From Cladosporium halotolerans (lineage: Eukaryota): 64,000 nt of DNA. The notes beneath the pieces were generated by a model. The model saw only the letters and a program-made list of their open reading frames with translations. It was not told where the DNA came from and searched no databases. The stretch covers positions 186,001-250,000 of the forward strand of contig NW_027191477.1 in NCBI RefSeq assembly GCF_011745625.1. The letters are read 5' to 3'. This document shows positions 5,912 to 54,227 of the stretch, one piece after another. The stretch's first letter is position 1. Each line of letters begins with the position of its first letter. The position numbers were made by a program, and so were the translations under genes.

Positions 5912-8061
5912 CTACGCGCCCATCTGCTCAGCAGTAGCCATCAGCGAGCCGACGAAAGTGACAATCAAGCGCGTGCGCATGTTCGTGATATCCTCCGGCA
6001 CCAGCCAGATAGTAGCGCCCATCTTGCGAGCAATCGAGATAGCCAGCTTAGCGTTAGCGTACATCTCCTCGTCCGTCCTGCCAGGCGCAACAAGATCGTA
6101 GTCGACGTAGCTGCTCTGCATGCCGTGCAAGACGTCGAGGAAGAAAGTGCCGTTGGCGAGGCTCTTGTCCTTGAACGAGCGGACCTGCGAGTTCTTGCCG
6201 CCCTTGGCCGCCATGCCGTTGGCCCAGTTGACCATGTCGGCGTCGCTGATCTCGCGCTTGCCCATGCGCTGGGCGAGGCCGGAGAGGGTGTTGACGATGT
6301 CGCGGCGCATTAGCTGCCAGACCATGCCGAGGGTGAGGGTGCGCTGGCCGTCGGTGATGTCGGCGCCCTGGATGCCGACGAGCGAGAAGTGGTTCTGCTT
6401 GCCTATCTCGACGGCGTAGTTGGTGTTCTCGACAGCCTTGAAGCGCGAGAGACCGGACTTGATGACCAGGTACTCCTCGTCCGGGTCGGTGGCCTGCGCG
6501 GGTGCGGCGTTGGCGGGCGGCTTGTTGACGTGGCGGTGGTTGACGCTGCCGGGGATGACCTTGTCGTAGGCCTGCAGGAGGATGGTGCCGTCGCGGAGGT
6601 CGTCGAAGAAGGAGACGACGGTGGGCTTGACGTTGAGGGAGTTGAGCCAGAGGGTGAAGACGCGGGCCTCGCGCTCGCCTTCGGCGTCGAAGTCCTCAAT
6701 CTCCTGCTTCTCCTCCTCGGTGATGGGCTCGAGGCAAGGGTGGGTGTTGAACAGGTTGGCGACGAAGGCAAGGTTCAGCTTGGGGTTACCGGCCACGAGA
6801 GAGGTGGGGGACAGGAATTTGCGGCAGTCCAGCTTGTCGGCGTTCTGCAGCACTTGCTCAGCGCGCTGCAGGAGGTCGGGTGTCTGCAGAGGAGCTCTCG
6901 AGCAGGTCTCAGGCTTCAATTGGTTGAGAAGGACCGTGTAGTTCTCGCCGTCCTTGACGTCTGTTGAAAAGTTCGAAACACTGCGAATTGTCAGTTTGCG
7001 CTGCCCAGAAGTGTGCAGATCGTCTTCTATCATACCGCTTGCCCCATTTGGCGTTCGCCAGGTGGTAGTTGAACCATCTCAGCAGGATCTGCTCAGGAGG
7101 CAGACGCAGGAACTGTTCTAGTGTCTCGCCATCCTCCAGCAGTCTGTAGAGCTCAGGGTGTAGCTTGATATCGATCTTGCCGAGGAGACCTCGCCTGATA
7201 ATCTGCCAGATCAGACCGAGGATCAAGTGATCTCTGCCCTCAATAATGTCGCCGCTGCCAATGTTGACAACAGAGCAACCAATACCCTTCGCCGACTCAA
7301 TGACGATGTTGTTGTTCTCAGTCATGTGGAATGCATTCAGCTGCTTGATCTTCTTGCCAGCCCTGTTCAGTACACGCTCGTCGATGGTGTCCGGTACGCT
7401 GTCGTTGATGAGCTTGGCCAGCACGAGACCGTCCTTGCAGTGGTCGAACATCTCGAAGGTGTTGGTGTCGAAAGGAAGCAGGTGTCCAATGTCCACATCG
7501 CCAGCGAGGACCGCGTTGATATGCCTGGTGAACTCAGTGAGTTCATCCTCGTTGATAGTGTGTTGCGAGCTGCCAGTGGCGCCGCCGACCGTAATCCTGC
7601 CGCCTCCTGCACCTCCACCGATGCTGGATGTCTTCCCGTGCGATGGTGAGCCAGATGCGCCGTTTCCTTGCTGAGCAGCGTTGCTAACGCCTCTGGGTCG
7701 CTGAGGGCCGGTGCCCATGCGCTGCTGAGCCGGCGACGACATTCGCAGCTTGGAGATCAGATCGACATAGTCATCGAGCTCAACGCGCCGTGAGCTGTCC
7801 AGCTCGACTTCTCTGAGCGCCTGGCGGACGACATCGTAGGGCTGGCGTTCGGAGTTCTGCGTGGCCTTGATGACGGTCGCCTCGTCGAGGTAGCCGCGGT
7901 CGTCGACGTCGAGTTTACTGAAAGCGTCGGAGAGGCCCAAGACCTCCTCCTGCTTAAATTGGGGATACTTCCTGTGAGCGCCATGTCAGTGCCGGCCTTT
8001 CCGAGCGAGGACAGGGAGGGGAGGGGAGGGAGACGGACTTTTGAAGTTTGAGGACGTTCAT
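5912..8061 (-). CDS. SAC6: Fimbrin (actin bundler, four CH domains); introns 7972-8038 and 6981-7035
   Basis: MNVLKLQKKYPQF start, DGLVLAKLINDSVPDTIDERVLN, LRLPPEQILLRWFNYHL, FTLWLNSL and AISIARKMGA. Canonical splice sites join the ORFs in frame. Confidence 0.95.
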
Positions 8062-28730: not shown

Positions 28731-30629
28731 ACAGGCGGACTGGCAGCTCGCGCGTGCCCTCTCCGGCTGGGCAGCCGCCGCTTCGGTCCAGGAGGGCCTT
28801 TTTTGTGGATGGTTTTCGTGTTCCCGCTGTTTTGCGGATCCCGATGGAGGAAGCTCGACTGCTCTGCCTCTGCCCGCCGATCGTTGCGGGGAACCTTTTC
28901 ACTTCGCGCACGCCTGCCCTCACCGCTCTTTCCCCCGCCGCCTGATTGGCCGTGTGGCCAGCGACACACCAGCCTGCCTCCGCCCGTCGACACACGCTCG
29001 CAAGCCCGCGGCATCAGCAGTCGGCGCCAGCTATGTCGCGTCGCCGACGAGGTCAGACATGCAGCTCGAACAGCAGCCCAGCCAGGCCATCTAGAAAAAA
29101 AAAAGTATTCCCCAGCCTGTCCCCGTCACCGTTGAGACATGCAGCGACAATCGCCGCGCTACGAGCCACCGCATCCCGCCCGCGCCAGCGTTGGTAGCCT
29201 CTCTTCGAACCCGCAGTAGCACTCCCAAGGTCCCCTCCCTCACTCTCTCCCGCCAAAAATAATTCCCACACGCGACTCCCCCCGACCCAAGGGTACAGCG
29301 CCAGATGACCAGCGCCGTAGTCCTCACCGCCCGCCCCTCAAACCTGCACACGGGCATCCTCCCCTCAACAGCCTCACCATCTCACCCGTCGCCCTCGTAC
29401 CGCCGGTAGAGACCCAAACCCCAGAATCTTCACACGCGCGCACGCCTCCGCCTGCGCTGCGCGGCTCGCCAGAGCCGAGAAAAGGCACCCAGCCCGAAAA
29501 GCACGCCGGGAAGTCTGCTGCCTGCTTGAAGGAAGGGCTCGCGCGTGTCTGCCGCCGCTGCCCTGCGTTGCTCGAGAGAGAGCGCGCGCCTGCGCCGGCT
29601 GGCCGGCAAAGCAGTGGCCCGCGGTTGCATGGGCGTAGCGTGCGCCGTAGCGCTTCTTTGCTCTTTCGTGCTCCTGCGGCGGGCGGGCGAGCGCAGCTGC
29701 TGCTGCTGCTCTGCGCCTCACTTACTCGTGCGAACTGGGGGAGGAGACCTGCTTGCGTCTCAGGCCGCCTGTGTGTGTCCTGTGCTGTGCGGTGCGCTGC
29801 TGTATGTATGTGTGGATGTATGTATGTATGTATGTGGGTGCGGGCGCGACGCGCTCCGCTTTCGGCGGCATGACATACTTGCATGCATGCGTTTGCGGAG
29901 GCGTGACTTGACTTGAGTGCCGGCGCGACGCAGGGGCGCTCTTGACGATTCCTTTGTTGGTTTTGACGTGAGCGGAACGGGCGACGTGCTTAGAGTTGGT
30001 TGCAGCGTGCGTGGGTTCGGCGTAAGGAGCAGTGTTCGAGAACGTGTGAGGTCGAGTGGTGTGGGTCGTGATTTGCGGTAGATCTCGAAGATGATCAACA
30101 ATTGATGCACTGACACTACAGATGCTTGTAGACCCATTCGGATTGATAGGGAAGTGCTCTTGCGCAGCATTTTTGGTGGCGAGTGTGCACTTGCTTGGAC
30201 AAAACGATGTGCTTGGCCGGACGGCTGCTGGCTGCTTTCTATGTAACGAACGTTCAATGGGAACGACCGCAGCGCATCTGAAGGCAATCGTGATGAGTTG
30301 ACAGTTATAGAAATGTGGGATCAGAACGCCAACGGTCAAGCTCTTAACAGTAGGCATGTGCAAAGACAAGGTGAGGTCGGAAGATGCAAGTAGTCAACGG
30401 AAGGAACGAGGTGACAACTGAGGCATCCCGACAACGGATGTTCCTTCCACAGTTGCAGCATCATCAACCTAAGGTACGCAAAATACACCAGGTAAGGAAC
30501 GATGCCCGTCAAGTCTTACTATTTGCTGAGATCAGATTCTCTCACACACATGATCATTGAATAACCATCACCACTCATCAATCAATCCATCATTTTTCCT
30601 CCGCAGGCATCTCAACGACGTAATGAAAG

Positions 30630-33600
30630 ATGCAGCACGCTGGTCCCAGCGAAGAACCTACCAGCAACCCACCTGAACAACGCAGCTTCAAGACAAAAGC
30701 ATCTCGCTACTTCATTCGTACTCCCTCCTTTGCATCGTTCAGGTCGTCTCCGGCTGCTATCGAGACGAATAGCTGCCGTAGCGGGCAAGACACAAACACA
30801 AGCGTCAGCCGGCTCAAAAGGGTACAACGCAGCGTTTCTGCATTCGCCTCTAGATTGCCCCTGATCAACCGTACGCTCTGCCCTCTCCTGGCAACTTCCC
30901 TCCACCCACTGACCAGTGTGCAGGATATCGTTCCAGATCTCGAATGGAGTCTTCTGGCCCTGCTCCGGGGAAACGCTCGATCAGCCACCAACTCCCATCT
31001 ACCTTTAGACCAAGATGGCCGAGCACCGGTGGCCTTGACCATGTGCCAGCCAGCTCATACACGTTCGGCGAAGGCTCAAACGAGTACTTGCCTCCACGAC
31101 CAGTAATCGCACCACCACCCGCTTCCCTCCCACCGCAGCGAAAGCGGTCTGTCCGCTTCGCAGATCCAAGCCCTAGTCCCTTCGACGGATCTCAGAGCTA
31201 TCAAGACTTCGGCTCTAGTGACAGTGGAGAACTCCGCAGGAGCAGACTCGGACACCGTCTTTCGGAATGCTTTGAAGCTCTGAATGGCAAATTGAACATG
31301 ACGAACGGGACTGATACGGTTTTGCATCGGCAAAATGTGCGCGCAAGGCCCGCTGTTCCGTATATCGACACGGCTATGATCACAACGGGCAGACCGACAA
31401 GACCTCCGAGCACTGCTCCGTCTAGAGCAGCATCTGCGCAGTCCACTAGTGCTTCTCCTGTCAGCACTGCGTCGACTGCAGCAACCTCCTTCGGCTCATC
31501 TCCACGCTCGTTCTCCTCACCAAAACGCCTCGAAGCAGACGAGGGTCAACTCGTCGCCCGACTACTTTCACCTGGCGATGACGTGCTGCTTCCTCCCATC
31601 GAAGAGGACACCAGTCGATTCCTCCTCATCCCACAGCAAGACAGCGTCATCACAGCGAAACCATCAATCGCCACCGTCGAAGCCGCAGCAGCAGCGAAGA
31701 CCTTTCTCGAAACCCAATACAACAACTTGCTACACGAGCCAAGCTCTCCTCGCTCGATGCGTCGCAAACGCCTCGAACAGGATCTGTTTGACCTCAAGGT
31801 GGCTCATGAAGAGCGCGTCAGAGCTCGGTGCCAGTGGTTGCGTACGGAGAACGATCATCTGCGCCAGACGCGTGCGCTGAAGTCTAGCTCGATTGCTCGT
31901 CATGGCGTCAAAGGCATTTCTATCGCTGGCTACGACGTCGTCCGCGTGCTTGGTAAAGGCAGTTTCGGTGTGGTCAGGCTGGTGACTGAGCGGAGTCGGG
32001 CTCATGCAGAGCAGAAGGAGACTTCCAGCGTTGGCAACATCGATCGCAATGATTGCACGGTCAACAGGGCTCTGCCATGTGGGAAGCCATTATCCGACGT
32101 CTTCGCCATGAAAGTCATCCGCAAGTCTGAAATGCTGCGCGGCTGTCAGGAAGGTCACTTGCGAGCGGAGCGTGACTTCCTTGTCAATGCTGAGGGCTCC
32201 CGATGGGTTGTACCCCTAATTGCGAGCTTCCAGGACAATACCAACCTCTACCTCGTGATGGAGTACATGATCGGCGGCGACTTCCTGGGCCTACTGCTGC
32301 GAGAAGATGTGCTGGACGAGGCTGTCGCCAGGTAGTACGTGGCGGAAATGATCCTCTGCGTCGAAGAAGTGCACAAGATGAACTGGATCCATCGAGACAT
32401 CAAGCCGGACAACTTCCTGATCAGCGCTTCGGGGCATCTCAAAATATCCGATTTCGGACTGGCGTTCGACGGGCACTGGTCACACAGCCAGAAATACTAC
32501 ACCACCCAACGCAGCTACCTCATGGACAAGCTCGACATCAAAATCGCCGGAGACAGCCAGGACCTCGCCGAAGAGTCCAGCGCCGCCGACTTCGACGACG
32601 ACATCGCCACAACCCCCAGGCACAGCAAACGCGACCCCGAATCGCACGCCCGCCGCGAAGGCCTCCTCAACTACCGCAACCGCACCGAACGGCGCAAACT
32701 CGCCCGCAGCGTCGTCGGCACAAGCCAATACATGGCGCCCGAAGTGATCCTCGGCCACCCCTACGACGGCCGCTGCGACTGGTGGAGCATCGGCATCATC
32801 CTCTACGAGTGCCTCTACGGCCGCACGCCCTTCTTCAGCGAAAACCGGCAGCTGACCAAAGAGTCCATCGTCGCGCACCGCTCCACCCTCTCCTTCCCCC
32901 GCCACGACCGCTACTCCCGCCCCTCCAGCGACTCCCGCCTCTGGCTCCCGCCCCCCTCCAAGAGCGCCCTAGACCTCATGCGCGCCATCCTCGTCGACAA
33001 AGACGCCCGCCTCTCCTCGCGCCAGTACCGGCAGGCGCAGGGGCCGGGGCTCGCGCGCCGCGCCTCGAACCTGCGCCACGTGCACGCCAACGGCGCGGAC
33101 GAGATCAAGGCGCACGCCTTCTTCCGCGGCGTGCCGTGGGCGGGCCTGCACGCGCGCGCGCCGCCGTTCGTCCCGCGCGTGCGCGAGCGCCAGAGCATCG
33201 CCAAGTACTTCGAGGACGAGGCGGATATTGTCAGCGAGGAGTCGTCGCGGTATGAGAGCTGCGAGGGGGAGGGTGGGGTGGCTGGCGCGGAGAGCGAGAA
33301 GGCGGCGGTCGGCTTGCAGGGGCTGTCGGATGCGGAGTTCCGGAGGGTCCGGGAGCACTATGGCGCGGCTTATGGGAGGTGGAGGGTGGAGAGGGTTGCG
33401 TTTTTGCAGCAGCAGCGGCAGCAGGGTGAGGAGGAGACGGCGGGCTGTGGGGTGAGGAGAGAGCGCAAGAGGCCGCGGGACAAGGTGCTCCGGGACGTGG
33501 TGGTGGGCAAGAAGGTGATGGAGATGCGGAAGAGGAGGGCGTTTTTCGGTTACACGTATCGAAGGCCGAGGCCGGTTGTGTTGGAAGGCGGCGGGAGGAG

Positions 33601-33646
33601 GGGGAGGGTGACTGTTGCGGTTGTTGGGGAGGGTGGGGAGGGGTGA
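30630..33646 (+). CDS. AGC/NDR (Cbk1-related, PUK1/STK-21-like) Ser/Thr kinase; intron 30871-30923; single in-frame TAG at 32333-32335
   Basis: LGKGSFG, AMKVIRK, HLRAERDFL, EYMIGGDFL, then AVAR*YVAEM, HRDIKPDN, DFG, a long activation-loop insert, SVVGTSQYMAPE, CDWWSIG and C-terminal hydrophobic motif FFGYTYRR. Both halves are in the same frame. Confidence 0.88.
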
Positions 33647-36370
33647 AGGTTGAGTAGGATGATGGTTGAACGTAATTATCCGTTTTCGGCTCGGCTTTGG
33701 TTTTGGTGTTGATATGGCGTTATTGACTTATTCGGTGTTCGGTGTTCATACCCTGAGGAGTCGAGGTTCGTTCGAGGTGGGATTGTATAGAACCTAGGGT
33801 AGCGACAATTGTACAGATGACTCTATTCTCCAGAGTGTCAAGGGGTCGTATGCCTACACCGTATCCATCAAATAAGCTCGCAACAAACATAAAACTCGCC
33901 ATACCCTCGTCTGACGAGTAGATTACCGTTCGTTCGCTCCGTGAAGACATTGCATACCCGCGAAACCCCCTACCTAGACGCGTAGGCCTTTTACGGGACG
34001 ATGGAAGTTTTATGCAAACGATAGATACGGGCTCGTAGTTCTACTCAGAGCACTACGATCAGGATCGTTTGAGAAGCAGTGTCCGGACAATCGGTGCTGA
34101 AAGAGCAGAGATGGATGAGAACGGAAGGCCGTTTGGCTGCTCCTCTCTGGTCGGTGATGGACGTACTAGAGACAAAGTTCCGTTCTTTTACAAGCGGATG
34201 CAACAGAGTCGACGAATTTTGCGCGATCGCGTATGGGTTCGTGGTTTGACGGCCGTCATGTTCGGTGAGTGAGCGTTCAGAGATGGTGTGTGAAGAGCGT
34301 GGGATTGCGCTGTGCTGTCCTCAAGGGTCTATCGTGTCCCAGATTCTGTGCTGTCGGCCTTTTCACGCAAACCATTGGAGCGTACTGACGACTTCGATGG
34401 ATCGATTGACGAGCGCATCCGCGGCTCCCCTTCGGCCATATGTAAACATTGAGAGCGCCATCGAAAGTAGGACTCCAGAATCGCACGTCGCTTCCGTTCT
34501 CTGGTGTAACGTTGTTCACCACATTTGACTTTCGTGTCACTTCCATACGTACGATGACGCCTTGCCTGATTTTCGCGGAACGACGATGAGCGGCAGCTTG
34601 AGACAGCGATGGAACAGATGAGATGTCGAGAGTGGAGTACCTGTGCGAGGCGATGTAGACGAGAGGTGCATGCCAAGCCTTGCGCCGATCCGCTCCGCTG
34701 GGTTTATGCAAAGGAGATCTGCCCTAGACCTGAAGTAATGCAGAGCGCGGTCGCTGTCCGCCGTCATCTTGTTGCTCCCATCGTGTGTCTCAACGTCGAA
34801 AAGTGGAGCTTGAACGTGAAGGCTAGGAGGCGTCCATCGAAGGGCGCAGCAGTGTTGTGGATGCGAAGCTGGGCTGGTTGGCTCACGATGGCTCTGTTGG
34901 AGCAGTGTATTTTCTTCTTGCTGCTCTTTCCTCCATAGGGCAGGCACCGTGACGATTGATTTTGAGTCCCAGGCCCAGTCTTCCAGGGCCCGAGTTTGGA
35001 TCATGTATTTGTCCGTCAGTTTGTCCTCTGGACAGATCCAGGGATTCAGCGCGGAGACGGCCTGCGATCCATCTCTGCTTTGAATTGGTACCTGGCTGTG
35101 AGGCACGTGGAAGATGCAGCCACCGCAACTGTCTTTCGAGCACTGTTCGCCAGTGGCGTACGTACGCGCAATCTCAGCCTTAAGGATATTACTGATCAAT
35201 GACATCCTTGTGCAGATTGCCGCGGAGCATCGATAGAAGAATTAGTCGAATGCCATGGATTGTGGCGTCCAGGCTATTGTAGAGCGCCAGTATGCTTCCA
35301 TGCGCGATGACATGGTGGAAGATTCGGCGTCGCGGCCTGTAAAGCCAAAAGTGTATCTACAGGGCACGTATGCAGTCCGGGAGGTCGAGAATGGTTCTAT
35401 ACAGACTACAGACCCTGTTGCACAGGCATCGTGCTCGGAACTTCAACACCCACTCGGAACGGAGTCAAAGATGATCAATTGGACGACGCGTAAGAGATGC
35501 GGACGGGAAGGATGACGACGATGTTTTCCCCAGCGCCCTGGCCCGGCGGGCGAAGCTCAATCCGGAGCCGCAGAAGTTTAGGGCTCGCAACGGGCGCGGC
35601 TCTTGCTGCCTTCCGCCGGGCTCCGGGGGCTTCCTGACTTTCACTAACCTCGCGTTTCTGGGGGTTGAGCCACTGCACAACTGGCCCGCCGTTTTCATGT
35701 TGTCTTCGGGTGCACTGCGCCCGAGCGTGCTGACGGCCGCAGCGAGTGCCATCGGCAAAGCGATGCGATGCGATGCGATGCGAGGCACCGAATTCGCTGC
35801 ACGCATCACGCAGACGGCCAGCTCTCCTGGGCGTAAGCAGTGGTGAGACGGTACGACGATGGAGCGCGCATCTCTCGTGACGAGCGGAGATATCTGCAGC
35901 TGACCGTCCGTGGGGCGGGTGTCAGGCTCCAACCTTCCCGCCGGCCGCGCTTGGGTCGCCTGTCTCGGACGCTGAGACCCTCTGCTCCGAGTGCATAACA
36001 GCGGCTGCTGGAGCGATACACTTCCCATTCCTCGGGACTGCCAATCCCGTCGCTCTCCCAGCACGCCAGATCGTAGCGCAATCTGCACTTGGCGCAGCAG
36101 TCCAGAACATAGGTCCGTCTTCCACTAGCTGGCGCTGTCAAACGCTATCCGGTACATGGCGCTGGCGTCATAGGTGATTGTCTGCACTGCTTACCACAAC
36201 GGCCAAGAAGCTTTGTCAAAGCTGTGAGCTCCCGTTTGGGTGAGTTTGGAGCGCCCGTTGTGTGTGTGTTCATATACCTGCGTCGCAGGGCCCTCCTCTT
36301 CATACGTCTCTCCTCACCTCTATCTCCTCTGTTGCCCACCCTATCACCACACAAGACTCTCCGTGACGCC

Positions 36371-39300
36371 ATGTCGTCCACGGGCGGTATCATCCGCACC
36401 GCATCTGGTCGCCAGACCTATCTTCCAGATGGTCTGGACGAAAACGCACAGTTCTCTGGCAACGGCGACACCGTCTCAAGAACGACCAGCGATACCTTGA
36501 ACAACAATGCCTCTAACAGTGTCGCGCCGGCACCGGAGTCGGGCTACATCACCAGCGAAGGCAAGGAGGCCGCTGAAGACCCCATTGAGACGTCGAAAGT
36601 CGCAGACGACTCTTCCTCTGATGAGTTCATCGAGCCCATCAACGCTGCTGATGCTGGCACCCTCACCAAGATCGCAACTCAGCTTTCCAGGAACCAGTCC
36701 TTCTACGCACGCCGTGGTAGCTCGGTGGCAAACGATGGTCTCCAGCGTACCAATACTCTTGAGGGCATTCAGATGGGCTCCCCCGAACTCGATCCCAGCA
36801 GCCCGAAGTTCGATCTGTACAAATGGATCCGATTTACCATGCGCGCCATTGATGAGGAAGACATCAAGATCGCCCGCGCTGGTGTCACAATGAAGAATGT
36901 CACAGTGCGTGGCACTGGCTCAGCATTGAGCCTGCAGAACAACGTCGGCAGCACGCTGATGGCGCCACTGAGGGTCGGCGAGTTCTTCAACTTTGGCTCG
37001 AAGCCTACCAAGACCATTCTTCACGATTTCGACATTTTGATGAAGAGTGGCGAGATGCTCATCGTCCTGGGAAGACCAGGCTCTGGCTGCAGCACTCTAC
37101 TTAAAACTATGACTGGCGAGATGCACGGTCTTCAAGTCGACGAGCAGTCGACGGTTCACTACAACGGCATCCTTCAGCAACAGATGATGCGCGAGTTCAA
37201 GGGTGAGGTTGTTTACAACCAGGAGGTTGACAAACACTTCCCGTAAGTCTAGCATCTCTTGATTGACTCTCTGAGCTTTACTGATCTCCGCTAGGCACTT
37301 GACTGTTGGAGAGACTCTCGAGCACGCTGCGGCACTGCGTGCGCCGAGCCATCGTATCGAAGGCGTCTCGCGCCAGGAGTTTGTCAAGCACGTCACCCAG
37401 ATTGTCATGGCTGTGTATGGTCTCAGTCACACGTACAACACCAAGGTCGGCGACGACTTCGTCCGTGGCGTGTCAGGTGGCGAGCGCAAGCGTGTCAGTA
37501 TCGCCGAGATGGCACTCTCTGGCTCGCCATTTGCAGCCTGGGACAACTCCACTCGAGGTCTCGATTCCGCTACTGCTCTGACATTCACGAAGTCTCTTCG
37601 TCAGACTGCAAACCTGGTGGGCTCCTCCCACGCTGTTGCCATCTACCAGGCCAGTCAAGCTATCTACGATCTCTTTGACAAAGCTGTGGTCCTTTACGAG
37701 GGCAGACAGATCTTCTTTGGTCCTACCAAGCGCGCTAAGCAGTACTTTGAAGAAATGGGCTGGTATTGCCCACCCCGTCAGACTACTGGCGACTTCCTGA
37801 CTAGTGTCACCAACCCATCGGAACGCCAGGCAAGAGAAGGCTACGACAAGCAGGTGCCCCGAACACCGGACGAGTTCGAGGCATACTGGAGGCGCAGTCC
37901 GGATTACGCACAACTTCACAAAGAGATCCAAGCGCACGAGGAAGAATACCCAGTCGGTGACGCTGGCAAGCTCGAAGAGTTCCGCGCATCGAAGAAGGAT
38001 GCTCAGGCACAGCACACCAGACGCAAGTCGCCCTACGTCGTCTCAGTTCCGATGCAGATCAAGCTCAACATGAAACGAGCGGTGCAGCGTATCTGGAACG
38101 ATAAGGCGTCTACTTTCACCCCAATCATCGGCAACATCATCATGGCTTTGATCGTCGGCAGTGTCTTCTACGGTACACCGAACGCGACTGCGGGCTTCTT
38201 CGCTAAGGGATCTGTTCTGTTCTTCGCGGTCTTGCTCAACGCCCTCAGTGCCATCTCCGAAATCAACTCTCTCTATGCACAGCGGCCGATTGTGGAAAAG
38301 CACAAATCATATGCATTCTATCATCCTTCAACTGAGGTGTGTATCAGCTCACAATATTTGATTGGGTCCCTCATATCGCTAACAGCTTCCCCAGGCCATC
38401 GCCGGTATAGTCGTCGACATCCCGCTGAAATTCGCTCAAGCCGTCTGTTTCAATCTGATCATCTATTTCATGGCTGGACTTCGCCGAGAGCCTTCTCAGT
38501 TCTTCATCTTCTTCCTGATCGCGTACGTGGCAACCTTCGTCATGGCGGCCATTTTCCGCACCATGGCAGCCGTCACCAAGACCGTTTCTCAAGCAATGGC
38601 GCTCTCTGGTGTGATGGTACTCGCAATCGTCATCTATACTGGATTCGTCGTGCCTGTGAGCTACATGGGCGCATGGTTCTCCTGGATAAGATGGCTCAAT
38701 CCGCTCTTCTACGCCTTCGAAATCATGATCGCGAACGAGTTCCACGGCCGACAGTTCACCTGCTCGCAATTCGTCCCGGCCTACCCTTCTCTCACTGGCG
38801 ACTCGTTCATCTGCTCCTCGCGAGGCGCAGTTGCCGGCCAGCGTACCGTGTCTGGCGATGCGTTCATTGCGGAGCAGTACAGCTACTACTACTCGCACGT
38901 CTGGCGCAACTTTGGCATCCTGCTCGCTTTCCTCTTCGCTTTCCTGGCTCTCTACTTCATCGCTGTCGAGCTGAACTCCTCGACTAGCTCCACGGCTGAG
39001 GTGCTCGTCTTCCGCCGTGGCCACGCTCCCGCATACCTGACGAACGCGGACAAGCAATCCGACGCCGAGTCAGGCACGGCAGAGAAATCAGCCCAGTCTA
39101 CCGAAAAGGAAGGCGAGGACGTCAACGTCATCCCGCCGCAGACCGACATCTTCACCTGGCGCGACGTCACCTACGACATCGAGATCAAAGGCAACCCTCG
39201 CAGGCTGCTGGACAACGTCTCCGGCTGGGTCAAGCCCGGCACCCTCACCGCGCTCATGGGAACCAGCGGTGCCGGCAAAACGACCCTCCTCGACGTCCTC

Positions 39301-41220
39301 GCCCAGCGCACCTCTATGGGCGTTATCACCGGCGACATGCTCGTCAACGGCAAGCCGCTCGACTCCAGCTTCCAGCGCAAGACGGGCTACGTCCAACAGC
39401 AGGATCTCCACATGGCCACCGCTACCGTCCGCGAATCGCTTCGCTTTTCTGCTATGCTTCGCCAGCCGAAGAGCGTGAGCAAGAAGGAGAAGTACGACTA
39501 CGTCGAGGATGTGATCAAAATGCTCAACATGGAAGACTTCGCCGAGGCCGTTGTTGGTGTTCCCGGTGAGGGTCTGAACGTTGAGCAGCGCAAGCTTCTG
39601 ACGATTGGAGTGTAAGTGATCACCTTTTGATCTCGTCTTGGAAAAATAGAAATACTGACTTTTTCAGTGAACTCGCTGCCAAGCCGAAGTTGCTTTTGTT
39701 CTTGGACGAACCCACCAGTGGTCTGGACTCCCAGAGTTCGTGGGCTATCTGTGCATTCCTCCGCAAGCTTGCGGATAACGGCCAGGCTGTTCTCTGCACT
39801 ATTCACCAGCCTTCAGCTATTTTGTTTCAACAGTTTGATAGGCTTTTGTTCTTGCGCAAGGTGAGCAATCTTCACGTATACTGCTCTCAGCGCCTTGATG
39901 CTGACCAAAATTTAGGGCGGTCAAACTGTGTACTTCGGCGACATCGGACAAAACTCACGCACTCTCCTTGACTACTTCGCGAACAACGGCGCTAGACGCT
40001 GCGGTGACGACGAAAATCCCGCTGAGTACATGCTCGAGGTTGCTGGCGACAAGAACCACGACTGGTTTGAGACCTGGAAGGCCAGCGAGGAAGCTCGCGA
40101 GGTCCAACATGGCATTGATGAGATCGCTCGCGAGAAGTCTAACGTCAACGATAAGGACGATGACGAGAGCGCGCACTCCGAATTCGCCATGCCATTCCCT
40201 CAGCAGCTGGTCGAGGTCACCTACCGCACCTTCCAACAATACTGGCGCATGCCATCTTACATCCTCGCCAAATTCGGACTCAGCATCGCGGCTGGTATCT
40301 TCATCGGTTTCTCCTTCTACGACGCAGACACGAGTCAGCAGGGCATGCAGAACGTTCTCTTCTCCATCTTCATGGTCACCACCATCTTCACCACCTTAGT
40401 CAACCAGATCATGCCTCTCTTCGTCGACCAACGTTCCCTCTACGAAGTCCGCGAAAGGCCCAGCAAAGCCTACAGCTGGAAGGCCTTCTTCATCGCCAAC
40501 GTCATCGTCGAAATCCCCTACCAAATCGTCGCCGGCATCCTCACCTTCGCCTGCTTCTACTACCCCGTCGTCGGCGTCCAGAGCTCCGAGCGCCAGGCTC
40601 TCGTCCTCCTCTTTTGCATAGTCTTCTTCATCTACGCCTCCACCTTCGGCCACCTCTGCATCGCCGCCATGCCCGACGCCCAGACCGCCTCTGCAATCCT
40701 TACCCTCCTCTTCTCCATGACCCTCATCTTCTGCGGTGTCATGCAGACCCCCGACGCCCTCCCGGGCTTCTGGATCTTCATGTACCGCGTCTCGCCCCTC
40801 ACCTACTGGGTCGGCGGCATCGCAGCCGCCATGCTCTCCGGGCGCGAAGTCGTCTGCGCCGACGCAGAGGTCTCCGTCTTCGACCCGCCCGCCGGCCAGA
40901 CCTGCGAGGCCTACATGGCGCCGTACCTCGCGCAGGCGCCGGGGACGCTGCAGAACCCGTCCGCCACCGCCGACTGCCGCTACTGCGGGCTCAGCGTCGC
41001 GGACCAGTATCTCGGCGGCTCGAACATTTTCTGGGCGGACCGTTGGCGGAATTTCGGGCTCATCTGGGCCTACGTTGCGTTTAACATTGCGCTCGCGACG
41101 TTCTTGTATTATTTCTTTAGGGTGAGGAAGTCGAGTGCGAAGGGCAAGAGCGATAAGTTGCAGAAGTTGGGGTTTGGGCTTAAGTGGATTGTGAACAAGT
41201 TTTGGAAGAAGCAGCACTAA
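36371..41220 (+). CDS. Full-size PDR/ABCG multidrug transporter; introns 37243-37294, 38337-38394, 39612-39667, 39861-39915
   Basis: NBD1 Walker [23 protein letters not shown] and [12 protein letters not shown]2 [15 protein letters not shown] and [11 protein letters not shown]. Two TMDs ending in WRNFG. All introns keep frame. Confidence 0.95.
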
Positions 41221-41486
41221 AGAGGGTGTTTTTTTTTCTCTTTTTGTGTTGATAAAAAGATTGAGGTTTTCTTTGGGTCAAAAAGTGTTGGATATATCTT
41301 ATAATTAACATGTACAATTTTCGCCTGTTGAAGATATTCTGATTACCATCTCATGTGTCAATAAGCTTCTCAAAGAAACTTTCATATGTCGTTGGAGTAG
41401 AGCCACTGGTAGGTGACAAGTCGTTGCAGCTTCCAAGTCCGCGAAATCGCACGAGCCCCTTGTCAGATGAAGCCCTCCCGAGCGCC

Positions 41487-42959
41487 TCACACAACACAAA
41501 GCACCGTCGCAGCACTCAGCCAAGAAGGCGACCCCACCACACCCTCATCACGCGTAGTCTCAAGCCCAAACTCCATCTTCGGCCAAACCAACATGCGCTG
41601 CAACCGCGCATCGCCCCCATGATACTTATCCAAAAACATGCAAATCGCCTGCCCCTCCATCAAGCCACGCCGGTACAGCCACCACTGATACCGGTACAGC
41701 TTCGCATACCAGTACGCGACCATCAGCAGCGCCTTCGCGTCTTTCCGCGCCAGCAGGTCTTTCAGCGCCGGAGGCATGTGCATCATGAAGCCGAAGAACT
41801 CGGTGATATTGTTGCCGTCGCACGTCACATGCAGCAGGCGCGCGAGGCCCATGGCCGTCGTGTAATAAGGGTTCGCGCTCTGGTCAACAGCGTCTGGGCC
41901 GAGATCGAAGAAGTCGCTGAAATCGCGCGTCATGGCGACGCGCTCTTCGCGCGAGAAGTCTCTCGGCTCGAGCATCGGCCTGAACAGCTCGCCGTGGCCG
42001 TTCGAGACGTGTCGGAACGAGCTCCCGGGTCGTAAAGGGTTGGCGATGGCCCAGACGGCCTTCTTGCCGTCGGACATTTTCAGCTAGTCCAAGTCGGAGG
42101 GGTCGGCGGGGCGGAGGGGCCAGGCTTCGGAGGGCGAGCGGGCTTCGATGGTGGCGGATTGGATTGCGCCGAGGAGGGCGGCGGTGGCCCAGAGGGCGTC
42201 TTTGTCGCGCTCGTGGATGGGGGAGGTGAGCTTTTGTTGGAATTTGGAGGTCCCGCGACACCAGTGGGAGAGGATCGTGCGGGAGATTTGGGGCGAGTTG
42301 GAGAGGTAGGCGTCGTGGAGGAGGGTTATGGTTATGACGATGTGTTCTAGGAAGGGATACTGGTCCTGGGATCAGGAGCCGTTTAGAGGTGTAGACGGAT
42401 GGAGTGGACTTACGGTGCACGCCAACTGGAAGACTTGTCGTTGATAGATTCTGGCAGCCTGGTGTGTTCCAACGGACAGTACAGTCCGTTCATTGAACCT
42501 CTTCAGGATCTCCAGCTCTGCCATGCCGAAACAGAGACCGCCCCCACCATCTTCACCATCCGAGCTTGGCGGACTGGGCAAGCTGTTGATGTTGCCGACG
42601 ATCACGGCATTCTGGCCCATCGGGCGACACCTCGCCAGCTGCCGGCTCAGCGTCCTCTCCACAACCCCAAATGCTCTCCCGTCAATCCTCGTTCCCGGCT
42701 GTGCTGCAATAGCAGTGCTCGCCGGCTTATCGTTGAAGCTGAACGAGCTCTCGCCCGCGAAAGTCAATCCGGCAGCACTCCCTTCATACTCGCACTCGAT
42801 TCCAAATGCTTTGCACTTCGCGCACGCAGGCTTGCTCTCATCACACTTGACTCGCCGTAACTTGCACCCAGCACATCCACGTCGTGATTTCTTGTGTGCT
42901 CGGCGGCGACGGTGAGCTTCGTCTGGTTCTTTCGCGTTGGCGGGCTGTGAGGGCTTCAT
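41487..42959 (-). CDS. Zn(II)2Cys6 transcription factor (UPC2-like fungal family); intron 42360-42413; single in-frame TAG at 42084-42086
   Basis: HKKSRRGCAGCKLRRVKCDESKPACAKC...CEY. After the intron YPFLEHIVITITLLHD...DALWATAALLG...EAWPLRPADPSDLD*LKMSDGKKAVW runs in frame into ORF 41487-42077 (ALLMVAYWY, WWLYRR). Confidence 0.85.
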
Positions 42960-43600
42960 GGCTTCTCTTTCAAAGCTGGCCTTCGAGAGGGCGGATAGTT
43001 TTTGTGAGATCTCATCCTACCTCAATGGCGGCACGGCCTGATTTCTATATCTCTGATCGATTCTGAAGGATCATGAACGTGATGACAAGGCTAGCTCGCG
43101 GATACGAAGTGAGGTTAGCGCCGAATCCCGGAGGATTTAAGCGGAGATAGACGTTGGTTGATGTTGGAGTTGAGTCCTAGTTTGGGGTAGCTAGGGTTAG
43201 GGTTGGGGTACCGTCGTCCGACGCTGGTACCTTAAACATCGTATTGTAAGCCCAGCATTTATTCATGTGGCTTGGCGATCACATCCTACATTCTGAATCA
43301 GCAAATCATAATGATCAGCTGCCTTTGCGGGGATATGGATTGTCCCGTGGCGTCGAATTGTGTTGATTAGTGAAATCCTCTCTCCAGCTTCACCCGGTCA
43401 TTGATTCCGTTCGTCAACACCACAATAATCGCAGAAAGCAAGTAACGCGGAACGTCCAATTTTGCGAAAACTCGATAGGTACAGCTTATAGGCATACTTC
43501 AATTGTATATCGTTCCAAAACCTCGCCAGCAGAATCGTAACTCAATCTTTCATAGCTCATCGGTCCAACGTTGCTCGTCTGCGGACATCGTCTCAGTAGT

Positions 43601-44206
43601 CTAAAGCGCCACAACAAGCCCACCAGCAACCATCAGCGCACCCCCAAAAGGCCCGCTAGTAACCATAGCCGGTGCAGCGGCCTTGCTATTCGTCGAAGCC
43701 GCCGCGCCGCCGGATCTACCAGCAGACGCAGATGACAGGCTCGTGGCAGCAGCCTGCGCCAAGCTGCTGTAGTCACGTTGCGAGAAGAAGATGGTCGTGC
43801 TGCACATTTGGGCGACTGTTGGGGAGTTTACGTTACTGCTGGCTGACGTTGAGAGGGTAGAGCGTGAAGTGGCAATGGCAGTGGAAGGAGAGGTAGTTCT
43901 GGGTGCGCCAGGGCCCGCGCCGACGCAGCAGTAGAGGTTGTTGTCGTCGCCGTAGACGGCGCCGGGGCAGCAGTAGGTTTCGCCGTTGTCTTTGTAGGCT
44001 ACATGGCTAGTCGGGCAGGAGGCGGTGCTGGTTTTGGTCTTGGTCTTGTGGTCACTGTCGGTGCGGTGTCTTGTCTTCTGGGTTGGGTTGTCCTGTTAGT
44101 CGGGAGGATGTGTCGGAGGAAAATGGAGATTTCTTACACATTTGGCAAGTGCTGAGGGGAGGACAGCGAGTAATACGAAGATGATCAATCGAAAGAGTTG
44201 CTGCAT
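43601..44206 (-). CDS. Small secreted Cys-containing, Ser/Thr-rich, probably GPI-anchored protein; one intron about 44078-44137
   Basis: Signal peptide MQQLFRLIIFVLLAVLPSALA, then SCPT..YCCPG..LYCCVG, an S/T/A stalk and a hydrophobic tail GGALMVAGGLVVAL. Confidence 0.7.
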
Positions 44207-45071
44207 GGTTACTGATCGTCTGAGTACGGTTGGAGGGATTGAATGGTTGGAGCGGTGGTATCGGATGTTCCCTAAGGCGGACCTTCTAGCTGGTTATATG
44301 TATATTGAACCTGTCAATGCACTGATTTACTTCCCTTCAGCCGTTTACCCTTGTCCAAGGCTCAGGACGCCCTCGCTGCCACAGACTAGCCAGCAGCTGT
44401 GAAGATCAAGGAGGCAACAGAAGCCAAGCAATTCAAGAGTCCAATATTCCAAGTTTCGAGGGCATTTTGGCTCGATAAGCACCTCAAGGATTCTTGGAGT
44501 TTACACTATCTGCGTCTAAAGGTGCACGCTAGGTCCAGAGTCGCACGGATCTGAAAGCTTATTAACCGACCCAGCTGAGGATGCTCAGCCCCAGGAACTT
44601 GAGGATCGTTGCACAGCCATCGATCCATAGCGCTCAGTTGGCACTTCACACAAGGTGACTTAGCAGGACAGAGCGGGACCGGATAAATGAAAGTTTTCTG
44701 AGAGCTGGAGCCTGAGGTAATATCCAGGTAAATGTTTCAATGCAATTGGTTACGACCTTCAGGCTCGCCAATTCACACCGCTCGGACCCCTCTGGCGCAC
44801 ATTGCTGGAATGCTTTGGCAATCAGTGGCGCACGTGTTAATTAAATCGCGAGCCATACACATTGGTTTCCAAAATGAGCGATGTTCTAATGTCGCGTGGT
44901 TCACTTGGAACCTAGAGCAAGATCGCGTGTGGCTTTGCAGTATGCGGAGTCTTGCAGATCCGCGATCGCCAAAGGGGATGTGAAGTCTGTCGGCTTGCTC
45001 GTATTGTAATTGGACGAGATCACGAGAAGGATCATACAGCGGTATGCTGGAGGCCTCGCTGTATCAAAGGC

Positions 45072-50836: not shown

Positions 50837-53800
50837 CTAATCGTTTGACACCCCCGGTGAGCTCGCCAAACGCAATCTCATTTCGCGGAGACAAACGATG
50901 TCTTCATGGAGTCCTAGTAGCTCGACGATTTCCGTGTGGCCCTCGGCTTGTGCTGCTTCTGACGCCGAACCATACTCCGCATTCCGGTGGGTTAAGCTTG
51001 CTCTGTGATCAAGCAGAAGTCGAACGCCATCATATTTGCCCTTCGCTGATAGCACGATCAACGCAGTACCGTATTCGCCTCCCACGGCGTCTACATTTGC
51101 GCCGGCGTCCAGCAAAATGCGCAAAGTTGCAAGATCATTCGTGGGCGGTTGGTCCCATGAGTACGATAGCGATGTCAGAATGTAAGAGCACGCAGCCAGA
51201 TATAATGCACTTTGCGAATCTTGATCTTGATCACACGGATTGGCTCCATGCTGCAACAGAATCTTCAGCAGCCTCGCTTTTGACCCAGCTGATGCTGTGA
51301 GCAGAGGCGTTCGACCTCGGTTATCGACAGCGTTCAAGTCGGCCCCGGCGTCAAGGAGCAACTTGACGATTTCTCGGGTATCGGAGTCATTGCTTCCCTC
51401 AGCTGGCTCTGCTACCAGATGCAAAGCAGTCCGAGACATTTCGTCCCTTCCATTGACGTCAGCTCCGTTGACCAGAAGCACTCTAACGATGTCCACGCAA
51501 GGGAGATTCCTTTCTGCGGCGCGATGCAATGGGCCCGAAGTTCCCGGAGCGTTCACGTTTGCTCCTTTGCGAATGAACAGCTGTATTATCTCCAGAGGAG
51601 CGGAGGCTGCGGCAAAGACCAGAGGGTTGTCATCACGACGGGAATCCAGGGCAGGATCCGCTGTATGATCTTGGCCTGAGAGAAACCGAAAGACATCCCT
51701 CTTTCCCCGTTTTGTCGTCTTGGTTCTCTTGGAAGCGTTCTCGGACCTCTCATGTTGAGCATTGATGACAGCCCCACGATCGAGAAGAAGCTTAACGACC
51801 TTCCACCCACGGAAGGATTGAGATGCCATGCACAAGGGACTGTTGTAATCTGAATCAGAGAGATTTATGTCAGCTCCGTGATCCAGCATAATCTCGACTA
51901 GTTCTTCTTCGTCGTAAAACGCGGCTAAATGCAGCGGGCTACCAGAGTATCCGCCGCACAATGTCTCAAGATCAGGTCGCTCGAGGCCAGGTATTCGCTT
52001 TGCTTGTCGAGACAACAATAATCTGTCTCGTTTGCTAGCATGCACGTTGCTATGGGTGTGCATGATCAGGGCTTTGGTGAGCTCGTAGCAATCCAACATG
52101 ACCAGAAAGTAGAGAAGGTTGGCAGAGTGGTCTTTCTTTAGTTGCAATGAGTTACGCCGATTGAAAAGAAAGATGTATTTCTGCAATGGGAACTGGCTTA
52201 ACGCCGTCAGATCGAGCATACCTCCAACAAATGCAAGCTCGATGTGTGGAAGCCAAGCCTCACAGAGGTACACATATAGAGGGTACGCAAAGCGAAGCCG
52301 TCTTTCAGCAGATTCGTCGGCCGGAATCCCGGACGATGGAATCAGGTCGAAAGATCGTTGACAGACTTCTGCCAACCTTGCATGACTCTTCGCTTCTGTC
52401 CTTTCGCGCAATGTATTGTCCAAACTCGCAAGACCACCATCAAGAAGATATTCTCGGACTGATTCGTGAAGCAGGTGAGCACCTCTCGCTGTAGGCCCAA
52501 CCGCATCTGTAGACCAATGGAATTGCAAGAGACCGCGAGAGACTTGGATAAGATAACGCTCCATTTGGTCTTCGTAGATTTCGCTGCGATTCCAAAAACC
52601 TGTGGCCAGATCCTTAACACTCGTTCTGACAGCAAAGTATAATTCTCGAACCGTCCATGAGCGTCTCCTTCCTGGAAACAGGACCCATAGCAGGAGATAG
52701 ACCAAGGATGAGTCTGCAACGCTTAAGATGTTTGCGAAAAGATCGTGAAGCTGATCTGGAAGGCTTGCGAGGATAGAACGCAGCTCAGAGCGCGCTTTGC
52801 CAGAATCGGTCGCCTCTCTGATCATCTTGACTACAAGTACAACCCACAGGAAAACACCTGAGCAGCGATCGCAGACCGTTCTTTGAAGCTCGGACGCAAA
52901 CGGCTCTGCGAGGGTAAGCTTACTTTGGACGTACTGTGAAATGTCATCCATATGTCCAGGGAGTGAGTCAAGCCTCATCTCTGCATGCGCACGCATCTCA
53001 ATGTGCGGATAGTGTCGACTTGACAGGCAAATTGAGAATGGACATTCCGCGGAAAGAACCGACTCCGAGAGATCTTCGAAGTATCCGATCGCTCGTCGCA
53101 CTGCTTCCTCTTTACACTCGTCCAGGGCATCGATGAAGCAGGTGACTTTTGTGTCTCGCCCCAGCGTATTGATTACCACGCGGAAAGCGTTCTCAAGGAT
53201 GTCTATTGGCCAATCTTGGTTCTCTGTGAAAGGCTGCTGGCTTGAGAGGCATGTCTGTAGCGCAGGAAACTCGTGCAGGAGCTGGTGTAAGAGCGATCGA
53301 TACATTCCCTGAGTCGACTTTGGTAGCTCATCGTGACTTCTCGCGTTGAAGAAAAATGCAACGATGATTTCGTCGTTGCGATTTTCGACGGTGTGGTTGT
53401 AGATGTGCTTCATCAAGGTGGATTTGCCGGTGCCAGCGCTTCCTTTGATCCAAAGCACTCCATGATGGGCTTCGCGTTCAGTAGGATCCCGCCATCTGCT
53501 GTATTCTGGTTGATTGAACACCCAGCTGCATGTTTGAGCGTATGCTGGACTCACTGCCGCCAGGCGATATCCCATTCCCTCAAATGCAAGAGCCCCTAAG
53601 ACGTCGACAGCCCCATCGTTGCCTGGAGAGGGATAATAATGATTGTTGTGAATGTCGCCGAGGTGCACCCTCGCGCTGCCATCCGTGCGAACGTCTCGAT
53701 AATCATGGCCCTTGCGTTCGATGTGCCTTTGCGCAGCTGGCGGCTGCATGAAGTCTATGTCACCCGCTTTGCTCAAATGAGTTGTTCCCTTCCCGTCTTC

Positions 53801-53932
53801 TGCGATCTCATCGCCATCTTTCTCTTTCGCCAGTGACAACCTCGCATCGTTCGGCGCTCGGGTCGCTTCCAATACAGATTGCTGTTGAGGGTCTGAAAGC
53901 GGTCTGCGTCTGCGACCCTCCCCGTCGGGCAT
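50837..53932 (-). CDS. Fungal NLR-like protein: N-terminal amyloid-like motif, NACHT NTPase, ankyrin repeats (alternative start ATG 53749)
   Basis: TCSW, LWIKGSAGTGKSTLMK (Walker A), FFFNAR, CFIDALDEC (Walker B), LSSRHYP, GVFLWVVLVV and HESVREYL. About 7 ankyrin repeats (SPLHLAA..LDHGADIN, TALHLVA..LLDAGADLN). Confidence 0.92.
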   Translation of the reverse strand: MPDGEGRRRRPLSDPQQQSVLEATRAPNDARLSLAKEKDGDEIAEDGKGTTHLSKAGDIDFMQPPAAQRHIERKGHDYRDVRTDGSARVHLGDIHNNHYYPSPGNDGAVDVLGALAFEGMGYRLAAVSPAYAQTCSWVFNQPEYSRWRDPTEREAHHGVLWIKGSAGTGKSTLMKHIYNHTVENRNDEIIVAFFFNARSHDELPKSTQGMYRSLLHQLLHEFPALQTCLSSQQPFTENQDWPIDILENAFRVVINTLGRDTKVTCFIDALDECKEEAVRRAIGYFEDLSESVLSAECPFSICLSSRHYPHIEMRAHAEMRLDSLPGHMDDISQYVQSKLTLAEPFASELQRTVCDRCSGVFLWVVLVVKMIREATDSGKARSELRSILASLPDQLHDLFANILSVADSSLVYLLLWVLFPGRRRSWTVRELYFAVRTSVKDLATGFWNRSEIYEDQMERYLIQVSRGLLQFHWSTDAVGPTARGAHLLHESVREYLLDGGLASLDNTLRERTEAKSHARLAEVCQRSFDLIPSSGIPADESAERRLRFAYPLYVYLCEAWLPHIELAFVGGMLDLTALSQFPLQKYIFLFNRRNSLQLKKDHSANLLYFLVMLDCYELTKALIMHTHSNVHASKRDRLLLSRQAKRIPGLERPDLETLCGGYSGSPLHLAAFYDEEELVEIMLDHGADINLSDSDYNSPLCMASQSFRGWKVVKLLLDRGAVINAQHERSENASKRTKTTKRGKRDVFRFLSGQDHTADPALDSRRDDNPLVFAAASAPLEIIQLFIRKGANVNAPGTSGPLHRAAERNLPCVDIVRVLLVNGADVNGRDEMSRTALHLVAEPAEGSNDSDTREIVKLLLDAGADLNAVDNRGRTPLLTASAGSKARLLKILLQHGANPCDQDQDSQSALYLAACSYILTSLSYSWDQPPTNDLATLRILLDAGANVDAVGGEYGTALIVLSAKGKYDGVRLLLDHRASLTHRNAEYGSASEAAQAEGHTEIVELLGLHEDIVCLREMRLRLASSPGVSND

Positions 53933-54227
53933 CTTGTCGTTGATCTGCTCTTAAGGGTCTGTGCTACATCGTGTAGAGTCATAAGTGGACGAGGCTGAGC
54001 TGAACAGTTCTAGATTGACCTGAGAAAGCTGAGCAGGCATGCGGGCCAATAGCCTGTCAGTGGCTTGCATCAGGCTGCATACTGGCTGCAGATACCCGCT
54101 CTGCTGCGGTCACTTGCATCGATAAAGGTGTATGCACGACAATGGATATTTGACTGCAGCGGTATCACCACAACATCAAAAATATAACTGTATTCAGGGA
54201 CTAGCTTGTAGAAGAGATTGTGGTATA

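Follow-up and report, generated by a model that had tools for sequence, protein, structure and literature searches.

An in-frame TAG interrupts a transcription factor gene of the Dothideomycete Cladosporium halotolerans at a codon where tryptophan would be expected. Such a codon may be the mark of an ordinary nonsense mutation or of a stop that is corrected in the message by A-to-I editing, and the question considered here is which of the two this locus holds. The window, that is, the whole stretch of 64,000 nucleotides that was analysed, contains a second TAG-for-Trp stop in a neighbouring kinase gene, so that the two sites could be compared with the same kinds of data.

The interrupted gene and its product

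The factor gene lies on the minus strand and consists of two exons, running from the ATG at 42959 to the final TGA at 41487 and comprising 472 codons (Table 1). The TAG at codon 274 shortens the factor from 472 to 273 amino acids, within the predicted ligand-binding domain. Around it the frame reads ...DPSDLD-TAG-LKMSDG... and then stays open for 198 codons, in agreement with the preliminary description, made from the letters alone, of a TAG at 42086-42084 followed by a clean frame of about 200 codons. An intron that would remove the codon was looked for and none was found, no homolog having a gap at the site. Splicing from the donor of intron 1 to the TAG as acceptor would leave the frame unchanged, yet 92 conserved codons would be lost and nothing restored; this was rejected. 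An altered genetic code, with TAG generally read as tryptophan, was likewise discarded because TAG terminates other genes of the window, e.g. at 43601, and overlapping frames are of no use as reporters of the allele, since the long overlapping minus-strand frame gives leucine with either base.

Table 1. Positions of the features discussed, numbered from the first letter of the window
Feature	Position	Strand	Remarks
NDR/Cbk1-like kinase with in-frame TAG at 32333-32335	30944..33646	+	
PDR/ABCG-type ABC transporter	36113..41220	+	PF06422, PF01061, PF14510; start taken from first open frame
Exon 2 downstream of the stop	41487..42083	-	198 open codons, conservation equal to upstream part
Stem of 6 bp with 11-nt loop starting at UAG	42070..42092	-	Present in folds, not above chance
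Premature TAG, codon 274, replacing invariant Trp	42084..42086	-	
Exon 2 upstream of the stop	42087..42359	-	91 codons; Upc2-like C-terminal domain begins here with its first helices
Intron GTAAGT...CAG, 54 nt, phase 0	42360..42413	-	From sequence; junction matches annotated P0065 and homologs
Exon 1, Zn2Cys6 transcription factor	42414..42959	-	182 codons, Zn_clus domain; agrees with annotated P0065

The annotated C. halotolerans protein WHR41_06348 (P0065, 273 amino acids) matches the frame upstream of the stop residue for residue and terminates at the TAG; it probably stems from the same assembly as the window and is then no second witness for the stop, which counts on the side of an assembly or sequencing error. 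Against such an error, the share of the 415 31-mers sampled from 40500-44500 that is found in run X1 is 1.00. About three of these are estimated to cover the TAG, so that an independent read assembly, probably of the same sample, agrees with it. The window has no N letters, and we consider an error very improbable.

The Zn2Cys6 cluster encoded in exon 1 is recognized by PF00172 (E=2.8e-9). When the query was combined with 92 of its 106 homologs, the resulting profile (93 aligned sequences) matched four Upc2 ligand-binding-domain sequences with E from 6.7e-12 to 7.1e-8. The structure model of exon 2 (pLDDT 88.7) has Upc2 ligand-binding-domain chains as all of its eight top fold matches, none of them reaching E 0.001. 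In common with Upc2/Ecm22 (Upc2 ligand-binding domain, PDB 7vpu, 7vpr, 4n9n and 7xb5), the factor has an N-terminal Zn2Cys6 cluster and a helical C-terminal domain; it is about 20% identical to the Upc2 ligand-binding domain, with TM about 0.43-0.45 and a best Foldseek E of 0.013, and unlike full Upc2/Ecm22-type factors this allele stops at residue 273. By its Zn2Cys6 domain and its predicted Upc2-type fold the factor is Upc2/Ecm22-like, a likeness that does not imply sterol binding. The stop lies past the third long helix of the model, and about two thirds of the Upc2-like domain would be lost. The PF00172 match, the Upc2 profile search and the structure model thus bear out the earlier claim that the truncated protein would retain its DNA-binding part, the Zn2Cys6 cluster, while most of the C-terminal domain would be missing from it. 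In the genome the factor's domain has four further matches, the factor being one of several such genes.

The tryptophan and the spread of the stop

Tryptophan stands at the site in 104 of the 106 homologs, that is, in all those that span it, including C. fusiforme and Fusarium species with editing; the remaining two are N- and C-terminal pieces of the factor gene itself. TGG, named in the preliminary description as the expected codon, is therefore confirmed. Since protein lists favour read-through forms, DNA was scanned with a pattern accepting TAG and TGG alike. TGG was found in all 13 metagenome loci from other fungi, which encode proteins 35-63% identical and none of which is conspecific; the set scanned may have excluded the sequences closest to the window. 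The pattern had no match in prokaryote genome contigs or in viral contigs. Among the 104 spanning homologs and the 13 metagenome loci the TAG was seen in no other species. Three short homolog fragments were candidates for covering the site, none of them significant.

Only one of the 106 homolog clusters starts downstream of the site; it represents the C-terminal piece from C. halotolerans itself. From this cluster of five, P0232 reads D-W-L-K-M and has four differences from the window over the 196 residues past the site, over which it equals P0230. It starts five residues earlier than its cluster-mates, at the frame's only upstream start codon, TTG 42092; the other four begin at a Met past the site and are uninformative on the allele. 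To judge from this one record, a 1,002-base contig that may derive from DNA or from RNA, a Trp allele exists in the C. halotolerans species group. If the contig derived from RNA, the tryptophan there would point to editing. The stop is apparently neither fixed in the species nor shared with relatives, the species-level part of this statement resting on P0232 as a single record. Identity to C. fusiforme is 118 of 169 residues after the stop versus 62 of 91 before it, and the window protein deviates in four of 58 well-conserved columns, the stop being one. Since the downstream part is as conserved as the upstream part, the gene has either been broken only recently or is still used.

A recent nonsense allele weighed against a corrected stop

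As the stop appears to be recent and is not shared, an ordinary broken allele is likelier than a switch operated by RNA editing, and we hold it probable that the TAG is a recent TGG-to-TAG loss-of-function allele of the Upc2-like factor. A recent G-to-A transition would have converted the Trp274 codon to TAG in one C. halotolerans lineage. The allele would be null or near-null: the message may undergo decay, and a product cut within the compact helical domain would be unlikely to fold or signal. The organism might cope with the loss either as the gene is dispensable or as paralogs stand in for it, too little time would have elapsed for further decay, and a programmed bypass would be unnecessary. 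The allele resembles the natural nonsense alleles of haploid fungal strains in being a single, lineage-restricted transition in a gene otherwise intact. It differs from typical ones in being of the editable TAG-for-Trp type and in its position 9.75 kb away from the kinase TAG, which is a widely shared stop.

How often such changes occur in this genome was estimated by a codon-pair scan for in-frame stops over 933,274 bases, with a sensitivity of at best 479/760. Seven candidates were obtained and only two hold up, the factor TAG and the kinase TAG, both TAG-for-Trp. Of the five dropped, one lies in an intron (GTATGT..CTAAC..CAG) and four are shadows of longer frames; three further candidates from a smaller first scan were lost on retraining, the one checked being a shadow frame. 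An intron can also mimic a premature stop in scans of open frames, as at L078:4244 on the minus strand, where an in-frame intron has its single stop inside the branch site; from a look at the sequence, we take this gene to be NUDIX/NADH pyrophosphatase-like. No ordinary nonsense allele was left as background in the 933,274 bases at this sensitivity. With only these two survivors, stops of either kind, whether ordinary nonsense alleles or sites resembling premature-stop correction (PSC), are rare in the genome. That the sole two clear in-frame stops are both TAG-for-Trp and lie 9.75 kb apart counts against the nonsense reading; it remains a coincidence without explanation, in a window that was chosen for the pair. 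Arithmetic from the genome's codon usage puts TGG-to-TAG at about 1 in 6 of all nonsense changes that arise by transition. RIP was rejected as the cause: although the single change is itself of the CpA-to-TpA type, the indices are normal, TpA/ApT being 0.57-0.67 at 40001-44000 versus 0.58 for the window and (CpA+TpG)/(ApC+GpT) 1.20-1.22 versus 1.25.

The main alternative is a PSC site, at which UAG would be turned into UIG by a deaminase of the Tad2/Tad3 or OLD type at some stage (the sexual cycle, stress, virus infection), full-length factor being made only then; the stop would be young and harm-permitting, and an editing system already at work on the kinase would have enabled it. We regard this alternative as unlikely. 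TAG-for-Trp is indeed described as the signature PSC change (PMC10776026), the UAG lies in the loop of a hairpin, its A having U at −1, and the downstream frame is intact and conserved. All three folds of the site contain the stem TTGGAC (42092-87)/GTCCGA (42075-70), which includes one U-G pair, so that folding reproduces the hairpin first described, with the TAG opening its loop. Its z values against shuffles are −0.21 (61 nt), −0.48 (101 nt) and −1.88 (36 nt; 11 of 200 shuffles as good). As a control, 101 of 317 out-of-frame UAGs in long open frames of the same contig lie in hairpin loops, 44 of the 317 in an equally or more stable one, and the corresponding base is also in a hairpin loop in six of the 13 TGG-bearing relatives. 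The figure given for F. graminearum is 62.4% of edited sites in hairpin loops (PMC4817773); set against 101 of 317 controls, the presence of a hairpin loop alters the odds by a factor of about two at most. Fungal editing is described as favouring A or G at +1 and +3 (PMC11156358). The U at −1 and the G at +1 of the site are both forced by the codon, and its U at +3 is contrary to this preference. A TAG in place of tryptophan together with a hairpin is insufficient for calling editing.

The best-described stop corrections are the sexual-stage PSC sites of the Sordariomycete Tad2-Tad3-Ame1 system, such as PUK1, AMD1, RID1, AMA1 and SPO11 (PMC4817773, PMC10776026, PMC11087585, PMC13251820). Like them, the factor has an in-frame UAG at an ancestral Trp, a hairpin loop, U at −1 and an intact downstream frame. 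Unlike them, it belongs to a Dothideomycete, its stop is unshared and apparently unfixed, it has U at +3, and its editing is hypothetical. Genome-wide Tad2-Tad3-Ame1 editing is reported to have originated in Sordariomycetes and separately in Pezizomycetes (PMC11087585), which counts against its operation here. In that system Ame1 carries the Sordariomycete MV interface residues; this genome has three DUF726 genes, candidate Ame1 relatives, which with the deaminases below belong on the side of editing. RID1, SPO11 and SPO22 are PSC genes in Fusarium (SPO11 according to PMC13251820). Also against editing, no in-frame TAG was present in the stretches matched, with partial coverage, for Spo11, Spo22 and three DNA methylases of this genome; TAA stops flagged in Spo22 were rejected, as they are located in an intron. 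Premature stops at PSC sites occur in single species of other classes, where they may or may not be edited (PMC10776026), and reviews treat stop-correcting mRNA editing in Dothideomycetes as an open question (PMC11156358, PMC10776026). A literature search that covered few subscription papers, and that included PMC10041177, found no report of mRNA editing for Cladosporium, Zymoseptoria or Dothideomycetes.

In a second system, OLD-ZAO, an edited PSC is known in the zinc-finger factor CHE1/ZAO, whose UAG is edited and beside which the deaminase gene lies (PMC12754623, a commentary on Honda et al. 2025; PMC11169179). The likeness consists in a transcription factor with UAG-for-Trp and in OLD-family deaminases in the genome. 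OTT_1508 (OLD-type) deaminases gave six matches over the cut-off, on contigs C663, C691, C527, C105, C95 and C128, and five of them have open frames and an intact HxE..CxxC motif. Unlike in OLD-ZAO, no deaminase stands beside the factor, none being found on the window's contig, C175, and the stop is not conserved; furthermore, the Zn2Cys6 DNA-binding domain precedes the stop in the factor, whereas the ZAO fingers are in the C-terminal part. The five intact OTT_1508 copies sit on small contigs. Two of them, L057 (C691) and L059 (C527), have resembling flanking sequences near them. On C105 (L061), tandem C2H2-like fingers at 6021-6122 lie downstream of the OTT_1508 motif at 2301, share its strand and are about 3.7 kb away from it, possibly making a deaminase-factor pair of the OLD-ZAO kind.

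Young PSCs occur in Fusarium, so that the non-sharing of the stop lowers the case for editing without closing it. The corresponding shares for metatranscriptome contigs were 0.05-0.13, and contigs cannot separate strain differences from editing. The short product might act as an on/off or dominant-negative switch, as the preliminary description suggested, but control of such a switch by editing is unsupported: the stop is missing in all other species seen, a near-identical Trp allele is found and the hairpin is unremarkable. It is likewise doubtful that C. halotolerans has a stop-correcting A-to-I mRNA editing in which the kinase TAG would be an old class-wide site and the factor TAG a new one, still segregating, with TAG and TGG alleles coexisting.

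Leaky readthrough of UAG-C, by which Gln, Tyr, Lys or Trp would be inserted at position 274 and enough full-length factor made, in small amount, for a residual function, is more improbable still. C is the leakiest +4 base for stop readthrough, and the downstream frame is intact. The residues usually inserted at UAG are Gln, Tyr and Lys; with tryptophan in 104 of 104 homologs, these are unlikely to serve. The context is not conserved either, since the stop itself is not. All of these gradings are matters of judgement.

As a plain nonsense allele, the factor TAG carries little weight: it would be a natural knockout, in a common mould, of an Upc2-like regulator that adjoins a PDR transporter, and it cautions against calling editing from TAG-for-Trp and a hairpin. 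If editing were true, stop-correcting mRNA editing would extend to Dothideomycetes, and a polymorphic site with directly comparable TAG and TGG alleles would offer a test of how such switches originate.

The kinase stop and the neighbourhood

The same data types show a shared stop in the kinase and none in the factor. Tryptophan stands at the position of the kinase TAG in 106 of 120 full-length homologs, and three other C. halotolerans haplotypes end at the TAG codon. Of the best 150 divergent kinase representatives, 140 were alignable at the site, protein ends being read rather than codons; 18 of the 140 end exactly at the TAG codon, nine of the best 12 among them. Ten of these enders were looked up; three belong to named fungi, Dothideomycetes among them (Meristemomyces frigidus, Periconia digitata and Myriangium duriaei), and one record is filed under an oak. 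Ending and W-bearing kinases are intermingled on a quick tree, and this distribution is a further argument for editing at the neighbouring factor. Seven annotated Dothideomycete kinases carry deletions over or beside the site, which may reflect gene callers splicing round a stop. In the kinase the UAG forms a 3-nt loop closed by a stem of 6+2 bp, with A at +3; in PUK1, a Sordariomycete PSC gene, the site has been described as a tandem UAG UAG. Relatives tolerate F, H, Q and Y at the kinase site, so that readthrough could serve the kinase as well as editing. The stop position is shared across Dothideomycetes and behaves like a real programmed stop, which on these alignments makes the kinase TAG a strong candidate for a stop that, outside Sordariomycetes, is corrected by editing or read through. 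It is a better place than the factor for asking about editing in Dothideomycetes.

In C. fusiforme the kinase and the factor are separated by two locus numbers (Q7P37_003322 and Q7P37_003324), and the kinase-factor gene order looks conserved between the species. The ABC transporter and the factor are arranged tail to tail. Of four DNA runs compared with 30000-45000, X2, X3 and X12 have contigs that extend across the factor TAG. Over 30000-40600 the sequences of X2 and X3 depart from the window by about 2-3%, but over about 40700-45000 by only 8 and 6 letters, respectively. This suggests a haplotype mosaic whose breakpoint lies close to the 3′ end of the transporter gene, as recombination between strains would produce. 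At 43601-44235 on the minus strand lies a small intron-containing gene whose product has a hydrophobic N-terminus, Cys-rich and Ser/Thr-rich stretches and a hydrophobic tail, with no Pfam match; it looks like a secreted wall protein, perhaps GPI-anchored. Farther along, a 1,037-codon open frame at 50837-53950, on the minus strand, encodes a NACHT-ankyrin protein of the fungal NLR-like type.
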